From positions 1 through 6,579 of IMG/VR virus record IMGVR_UViG_2778261641_000015: 6,579 nucleotides of DNA; one strand, written 5' to 3'. Of the stretch, positions 812-872 are shown piece after piece. How positions within the stretch are numbered: position 1 is the first letter of the stretch; each line of letters opens with the position of its first letter. This DNA is from a virus (lineage: Duplodnaviria > Heunggongvirae > Uroviricota > Caudoviricetes). The notes beneath the pieces are model-generated. The model saw only the letters and a program-made list of their open reading frames with translations. It ran no database searches and was not told the DNA's origin. Position numbers and translations under genes: made by a program.

Positions 812-827
812 ATAAATCACTCTCTTA

Positions 828-872
828 CTGTAGGGGTAAGAGGATTTTACTATTTTTCTCGCTGTAGGGGTA
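828..872. repeat. Direct repeat CTGTAGGGGTA at 828-838 and 862-872, 34 bp apart; possible operator pair in the 5' region of the minus-strand gene
   Basis: Exact 11-bp match read directly from the sequence, lying 17-61 bp upstream (minus-strand sense) of the ATG at 811. The first copy is embedded in the palindrome CTCTTAC(822-828)/GTAAGAG(836-842). A TAAAAT -10-like hexamer (minus strand, 849-844) lies between the copies. Confidence 0.5.

Follow-up and report, generated by a model that had tools for sequence, protein, structure and literature searches.

The locus and its minus-strand gene

The DNA analysed here (hereafter the window: a stretch of 6,579 nucleotides, virus record IMGVR_UViG_2778261641_000015) corresponds to the early-left (pL) operon of a lambdoid phage and runs in the direction of pL transcription. 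A search with 781 of its bases (300-1080) matched phage ev099 at 100% identity, and the same stretch is present as a prophage in about 93 complete E. coli genomes. Its genes run in the order N (plus strand) – a minus-strand gene – ea10 – kil – gam – bet – exo, and the features of immediate concern at its left end are these:

1..324, plus strand: 3' part of the antitermination gene N, from the annotation of ev099 and E. coli prophages; it sets the pL direction
317..811, minus strand: cargo gene of 164 amino acids, HkaP family, with a coiled-coil N-terminal part and a C-terminal CxxC...CxxC
820..826, minus strand: Shine-Dalgarno-like AAGAGAG, read from the sequence, 8 nt before the ATG at 811-809

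The minus-strand gene, called the cargo below, occupies the position and orientation of sieB, as do lambda and P22 sieB and the hkaP gene of HK620. The original prediction took it for a novel gene. It belongs in fact to the HkaP family, phrog_1244: its protein is 27% identical to HK620 HkaP (E = 3e-13), and the cargo protein and HkaP match this family with E-values of 4e-53 and 8e-51. The HK620 record annotates the hkaP product as a putative superinfection exclusion protein. A SieB domain was looked for in the cargo protein and none was found; nor did the HkaP-family alignment hold any stretch conserved enough to serve as a search pattern for related loci. There is a GGAGG-N7-ATG, in frame, at Met23 of the cargo (757-743, minus strand), and a start there could yield an N-terminally shortened product, reminiscent of the Esc product of P22 sieB. 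This Met23 is not conserved, being absent in two relatives (L037 and L060), and the cargo does not appear to encode a SieB with an in-frame truncated Esc. Since the cargo is of the HkaP family and is not SieB, a SieB/Esc two-product switch would be hypothetical for the window.

The cargo and N are convergent and their ends overlap by 8 bases (317-324) with no terminator between them, so that transcripts from the cargo promoter would run antisense into N. The ev099 record misses the 164-residue minus-strand gene and has an open reading frame of 88 amino acids on the N strand inside it (L001 3066-3332, corresponding to window 365-631, plus strand); RefSeq does list the gene in prophages, where it is labelled a hypothetical protein. 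Farther downstream of pL there is an imperfect inverted repeat of 22 nt at 922-969 and, just before ea10, a strong intrinsic terminator (TTGCCCTCCAGTGTGAGGGCGA followed by TTTTTT) at 1020-1047 on the plus strand, the counterpart of which is annotated in HK620 as tL2A. These two elements may mark the ends of a small RNA on the pL strand. A weak Rfam match to RyhB at 989-1047 was set aside as a terminator-to-terminator resemblance only.

The repeat pair and the inverted repeat

The 11-mer CTGTAGGGGTA occurs exactly twice on the plus strand of the window, at 828-838 and 862-872, with a start-to-start distance of 34 bp, just as the original prediction had it. The likeness extends over 16 nt, 14 of them identical, with TCTTACTGTAGGGGTA at 823-838 and TCTCGCTGTAGGGGTA at 857-872, again spaced by 34. 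The 7-bp inverted repeat reported around the proximal copy, CTCTTAC (822-828) and GTAAGAG (836-842), is likewise where it had been placed, and the minus strand reads TAAAAT at 849-844. One detail has to be turned round: the 3' arm of the inverted repeat was said to overlap the Shine-Dalgarno region of the minus-strand gene, and an arm does so, but it is the one at 822-828 and not the one at 836-842. The former counts as the 3' arm only when the minus strand is read, and the latter is no further downstream than the inferred transcription start.

Statistics drawn from the window only are modest (5 of 200 shuffles reach at least 3 matches with at most 2 mismatches). It is from the comparative data given below that we judge the repeat pair not to be a product of chance, and we regard the repeat as real and functional in kind. 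The search for additional copies in the phage that had been proposed as a check brought up none beyond the pair: in the ev099 genome (47,224 bp) the 10-mer is found at these two sites only, and at up to one mismatch there is a single extra match, inside a capsid/scaffold gene, which is at chance level (1.5 expected by chance).

Homology to the sieB and hkaP control regions

This repeat pair recurs, spaced by 34 bp as here, in front of lambda sieB, P22 sieB and HK620 hkaP. Lambda and P22 each carry ACCCCTACAG in two copies at a distance of 34 bp, with TAAACT in between; the rest of their spacer differs from that of the window. Positions 809-1049 of the window are 96.7% identical to the region upstream of HK620 hkaP, the similarity beginning exactly at the start codon. 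The genetic setting is shared as well; as in lambda, P22 and HK620, the pair in the window is in the pL operon downstream of an N homolog, with a cargo gene that opposes pL. An alignment brings out the elements shared with the P22/lambda PsieB/sas region.

Ranade and Poteete reportedly described, in 1993, the P22 sieB promoter (PsieB) and the antisense RNA sas. [quoted passage not shown] The P22 sas reads in a table of sRNA-seq data begin 5 nt inside the sieB reading frame, cross both repeat copies as well as the hairpin of the distal copy, and end just past one more conserved element, CCACCGAGCCUGACGUGGUUAAAAGACAGGC, the hairpin-3 described below (PMC13397905). The P22 records BK000583 and AF217253 contain no sas feature. 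When P22 sas was used as a BLAST query, it matched window-type cassettes in HK446 and vB_EcoP-720R6 (87% over 85 nt).

Promoter and mRNA start

In the P22 RefSeq record the sieB promoter is given as TGTACCCCTACAGCGAGAAATCGGATAAACT, with the sieB RNA starting at the A of the proximal ACCCCTACAG. Alignment of TAAAAT-CCTCTT-ACCCC in the window to TAAACT-CTATTC-ACCCC of P22, where the start is annotated, places the -10 hexamer suitably for a start at the first base of the proximal repeat, and from this homology we infer that cargo transcription starts at A 837. The proximal copy would then be nucleotides +1 to +10 of the mRNA. The elements concerned are:

844..849, minus strand: -10 hexamer TAAAAT of the putative PsieB-type promoter, aligned with TAAACT of P22 and lambda
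828..838, minus strand: proximal repeat copy, which reads TACCCCTACAG on this strand; 837-828 would be the first 10 nt of the cargo mRNA
862..872, minus strand: distal repeat copy, which on the sense strand lies over the -35 region (about -35 to -25) and inside the promoter as annotated in P22

From such a start the cargo mRNA would have a leader of 26 nt, with AAGAGAG (826-820) as its Shine-Dalgarno region. The geometry is a general one. In all of 49 diverse cassettes of this kind, the repeat is 8-16 nt long and its proximal copy is preceded by a TAnnnT hexamer that ends 4-7 nt away, which puts the repeat start at or next to the expected transcription start in every cassette type. The -10-like hexamer of the original prediction (849-844) is thus well placed, aligning with the annotated P22 -10 and having a TAnnnT counterpart in each of the 49 relatives. 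Its failure to find a convincing -35 was equally correct, and a weak -35 is general to the family. A sigma-70 scan found no canonical promoter at the repeat. The consensus sequences of sigma-28, sigma-32, sigma-54 and sigma-E do not fit by eye, and those of LexA and IHF do not either.

The idea that an RNA hairpin here gates translation survives in spirit, as RNA control, but the hairpin cannot be one within the mRNA. With the start at 837 inside it, the upstream arm of 822-828/836-842 would be untranscribed save for its last base or two; the hairpin at 821-843 could consequently form only in an RNA of the opposite strand, transcribed in the pL direction.

Predicted RNA structures on the antisense strand

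The plus strand of the window at 806-915 has all of the parts of P22 sas, and its predicted fold consists of two hairpins (H1 and H2) and a third element (hairpin-3). An antisense RNA in the pL direction is therefore predicted for the window by homology to P22 sas, the structural elements being conserved; a convincing promoter for such a sas-type RNA was looked for and none was found. A search of Rfam gave no relevant match at 600-1200 on either strand (E <= 10), and only chance-level ones elsewhere. The predicted structures are:

821..843, plus strand: hairpin H1, with CTCTTAC/GTAAGAG as its stem and a loop that includes part of the proximal copy
856..880, plus strand: hairpin H2, TTCTCG(C)TGTA-GGGG-TACACGAGAA
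881..911, plus strand: hairpin-3, a candidate H-type pseudoknot, inside the region homologous to the P22 sas reads
881-884 with 895-898, plus strand: stem S1 of the candidate pseudoknot, CCAC with GTGG
888-892 with 907-911, plus strand: stem S2 of the candidate pseudoknot, GCCTG with CAGGC

The 5' arm of H1 is complementary to the Shine-Dalgarno region of the mRNA. Hairpins of the H1 region are more stable on the antisense strand in 42 of the 49 relatives, and H1 is weak in the type B and C cassettes. It might be supposed that H1 with its U-rich tail is chiefly a terminator or pause site for pL transcription, given that a permissive scan for consensus elements reports 821-843 plus the ensuing ATTTTACTAT as a terminator-like feature of the plus strand, or else that it is an mRNA hairpin which hides the Shine-Dalgarno region, the complement of which is contained in its stem. 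However, the stem has just 3 G-C pairs, the tail is interrupted and a hairpin-plus-U-tract is not conserved in types B and C, while the 5' arm of an mRNA hairpin would lie nearly all upstream of the inferred start at 837. We consider both versions very improbable.

The distal copy is embedded in H2. On the plus strand its bases make up the bulged C, the inner part of the 5' arm and the loop (GGGG), and continue into the first two positions of the 3' arm. In the alignment of 49 cassettes, 9 of the 10 pairs of H2 show compensatory changes and 87% of the cells are paired; none of 500 shuffles reach the observed values, and in controls slid along the alignment the paired fraction drops to 35-44%. 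RNAalifold recovers the H2 core de novo (8 of the 10 counted pairs). The changes also betray a strand: around the distal copy there are 58 G.U pairs when the antisense strand is read and 23 when the sense strand is, and H2 folds better on the antisense strand in 46 of 49 cassettes (mean of -9.3 versus -6.1 kcal/mol). Judging from these patterns of substitution, H2 is an RNA structure of the antisense strand. The loop is GGGG in types A, B, D, E and F, the repeat being made up of the 5' arm of H2, the loop and 1-2 more bases.

These data weigh on the reading first given to the locus, in which the two copies are operators for a DNA-binding regulator (the phage repressor, a host factor or the cargo product itself) over the -35 and +1 positions. 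Such a reading does have its attractions, for the -10, which lacks a good -35, is flanked by direct repeats at a distance of about three helical turns, the surroundings of the distal copy are a DNA palindrome too, and the strong conservation of both copies would suit a protein site. Nevertheless, the changes within the palindrome are compensatory and carry a G.U bias on one strand, which is RNA-like and not like a protein site; an operator would also have no reason to lie at or next to the transcription start in 49 of 49 cassettes. The 47 kb of ev099 offer no other site within one mismatch apart from the chance-level match, and hence no copies at its other regulated promoters. Nor does the site co-vary with immunity type or with the neighbouring gene. 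The motif is common to lambda, P22, HK620 and ev099 in spite of their different repressors, N proteins and cargo, which implies that no phage-encoded partner travels with it. Cargo and repressors thus vary independently of the repeat, which argues against an operator pair and against autoregulation alike. For an operator pair, which we now regard as improbable, we find no support; autoregulation by the cargo product is unlikely since the cassette serves genes that are unrelated to one another (SieB family, HkaP family and others).

The third element, hairpin-3, has both of its stems paired in 99% of the cells, a near-invariance that is partly by construction since these stems were part of the search anchor, with rare compensatory changes in each of them (L037, L064, L103 and Rac). 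The linker at 900-906 is A-rich (TAAAAGA). Hairpin-3 is present in all of the 119 Enterobacterales DNA stretches described below, some of which lack the repeat pair. The candidate pseudoknot may protect the 3' end of the antisense RNA.

A family of cassettes in the Enterobacterales

We surveyed one genome per bacterial species with a pattern derived from the third element alone, thereby avoiding selection for the repeat. This yielded 119 DNA stretches across the Enterobacterales, from Escherichia, Salmonella, Klebsiella, Enterobacter, Citrobacter, Proteus, Providencia, Morganella, Xenorhabdus, Photorhabdus, Serratia, Hafnia, Edwardsiella and others. A significant direct-repeat pair (one reached by no more than 1% of shuffles) was present in 37 of the 96 unique cassettes, with a spacing of 31-37 bp that was mostly 33-34. 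The repeats are type-specific (ACCCCTACAG, ACCCCTACAA, TCCCCAACAAC, TTCCACAGTCAA, CTCCCCAGCAA, CCCCCACAA and TCCCCAGTRATAAA), and the two copies agree within a cassette. The cargo varies widely within one cassette type (SieB family, HkaP family and others), and types B and C each have many different cargoes. Some of the type-A sequences were collected with a pattern that called for both copies, which leaves the alignment with some bias. In this type the least variable portion, whatever the cargo, consists of H2 and the third element.

A few members deserve a separate mention. The type-A cassette of Candidatus Phlomobacter fragariae (L201) has a proximal C run of nine C and a spacing of 37, the only case seen of length variation within the repeat. 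In the single-hairpin class, the 3' flank of hairpin-3 (GGTGGTATTCT) resembles an extended -10 on the sense strand. Sequences identical or nearly identical to lambda (L179, L182, L183, L186, L233 and others) turned up on short, low-coverage contigs in assemblies of unrelated bacteria such as Pseudoxanthomonas, Nocardioides, Lacrimispora, Shewanella, Ancylomarina and others; these are most likely contaminating lambda DNA.

The survey bears on a second alternative, namely that the repeat is the relic of a tandem duplication of the 5' UTR which created an internal promoter, the copies having no functional interaction. The distal copy would then be constrained as the stem and loop of an antisense hairpin, with a stabilising role, and the proximal copy as the start site and 5' end of the mRNA. 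Some features of the family fit such a history: there is an SfV-type class with a single hairpin followed directly by a Shine-Dalgarno region and ATG, with no repeat pair; in P22 the spacer that follows the distal copy, GAGAAATCGGATAAAC, is similar to the 5' UTR with its start codon, GAGAATCGCCGATGAAC; and the copies differ by 1-4 bases in some lineages or decayed prophages (Kp4884-1, L271, L168, L246 and Rac). On the other hand, about half of the 24-bp spacer of type A has diverged between the window and lambda, and both 10-mers are unchanged. Moreover, two Photorhabdus cassettes (L172 and L212) share a G to A change in both copies and have also changed the pairing base in the 3' arm of H2, and the same substitution in both copies is not what independent constraints would lead one to expect. 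We find a relic of this kind unlikely, if less so than an operator pair.

The literature searched, which did not cover the 1993 P22 primary papers, contains no description of the co-variation of the two copies across types, of the wide range of cargo behind one cassette or of the broad conservation of the third element. All three are put forward here as leads and not as established facts.

A probable portable cassette of promoter and antisense RNA

The explanation that we favor, with a probability of roughly 0.65, is that the repeat is part of a portable control cassette found in lambdoid phages, homologous to PsieB and sas of P22 and lambda, which in the window serves a cargo of the HkaP family. 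According to this model, a PsieB-type promoter with its -10 at 849-844 would start the cargo mRNA with the proximal copy, the distal copy lying over a weak -35. The opposing pL transcripts would carry the complements of both copies, the proximal one in or next to H1 and the distal one in H2. When pL is active, on induction or superinfection, the antisense RNA would pair with the cargo leader, its Shine-Dalgarno region and start codon, and would shut off translation of the full-length cargo as is reported for P22 sas and sieB. H2 would be a second site for pairing with the mRNA, one that is independent of the cargo and can act in trans; this would be why the distal copy is kept identical to the 5' end of the mRNA. 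The invariance of H2 and the third element whatever the cargo suggests that they could act in trans between phages.

In co-folding calculations with H2 and the third element of the window (851-915) as partner, nucleotides +1 to +18 of the mRNA, the Shine-Dalgarno region included, pair with the 5' arm and loop of H2. The net gains against 851-915 were as follows:

Window mRNA 5' end: -15.8 kcal/mol
Window mRNA with its first 11 nt shuffled, mean: -3.6 kcal/mol
Lambda sieB mRNA: -14.6 kcal/mol
Type-B mRNA: -2.7 kcal/mol

Two considerations count against H2 as a second site. Complementarity to the mRNA is already complete in the cis-antisense stretch over the proximal copy, which by itself gains a net -45 kcal/mol and makes a second site look redundant; and pairing with H2 must open a hairpin of about -10 kcal/mol with a loop of only 4 nt. 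The identity of the copies may instead reflect a duplication of the 5' UTR, each copy having then been separately constrained.

Within the cassette model we advance, quite tentatively, a more specific role for the repeat: that of an address tag, 10-14 nt long, at the 5' end of the mRNA with its complement in H2, in types A to F. On this reading the complement, in the loop and 5' arm of H2, would lie on the pL transcript outside the cis-antisense overlap, and the exclusion or defence gene that a resident prophage has next to N could be silenced in trans, whatever its identity, by an incoming or induced phage with the same tag. Phages would fall into specificity groups according to their tags, comparable to incompatibility groups.

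For the window itself, what appeared to be an operator pair becomes a module made up of a promoter, a predicted mRNA start and an antisense control. The wider interest of the cassette lies in its position, for the N-proximal slot of lambdoid prophages holds many accessory genes that are candidates for superinfection exclusion or defence. This varied cargo would stand behind a single cassette of four parts: a -10, a 5'-end tag, an antisense hairpin that bears the tag and a conserved hairpin or pseudoknot. A tag that did work in trans would account for the escape of phages from exclusion by their own genes and those of their relatives, and would predict which phage-prophage pairs cross-neutralise. 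Should the tag reading be true, it would amount to a general RNA-based system of counter-defence and self-safety in lambdoid prophages across the Enterobacterales.

Comparison with known systems

One close relative is the PsieB/sas region of P22, which shares with the window its place in the pL operon beside an N/gene 24 homolog, a cargo on the opposite strand, both copies of the repeat at 34 bp with the -10 in between, H2 and hairpin-3. The two differ in their cargo (SieB in P22, HkaP family in the window), in the -10 (TAAACT and TAAAAT, respectively) and in the spacer and 5' UTR. HK620 hkaP, as annotated by Clark et al. 2001 (AF335538), resembles the window in both the control region and a phrog_1244 cargo, whereas the two cargo proteins are only 27% identical and the HK620 record has no annotation of a promoter or antisense RNA at this place. 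The sieB regions of lambda and of the Rac prophage of E. coli K-12 also have ACCCCTACAG twice at 34 bp, H2 and hairpin-3 in common with the window, their cargo being SieB. In Rac (L277 5565-5675, upstream of sieB, b1353) the distal ACCCCTACAG of this type-A cassette is intact and the proximal copy, now ACCCTTACAG, has decayed; the -10 there reads TAACAT and the S2 stem GCCCGG/CCGGGC. As K-12 itself has a type-A cassette, published K-12 data on start sites and RNA interactions can be mined for it. The KilS sRNA of Rac was considered as the cassette RNA and rejected; it lies about 170 nt further in the pL direction, about 60 nt past the end of the cassette, and there is no overlap.

A likeness in proposed working, with no sequence relationship to the window cassette, is offered by IS10. 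There the free 5' end of the mRNA RNA-IN pairs with the loop and 5' side of the RNA-OUT hairpin, and the resulting duplex covers the ribosome-binding site. The window differs in that H2 is not encoded opposite the mRNA but upstream of the promoter of that mRNA.

The anti-sRNAs AgvB and AsxR of prophages come from lambdoid moron sites in the late region, are encoded 3' of PR' and have a conserved 3' domain and terminator (PMC4104026). The C/A-rich motifs of some cassette types do resemble the GcvB target consensus CACAACA, but identity with this system was rejected, as the window element is in the pL operon and not at a late-region moron site 3' of PR', and ACCCCTACAG is unlike the GcvB consensus. 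By its homology, the element in the window, which is absent from Rfam, is instead a member of the P22/lambda PsieB-sas cassette family, one that carries a cargo of the HkaP family.
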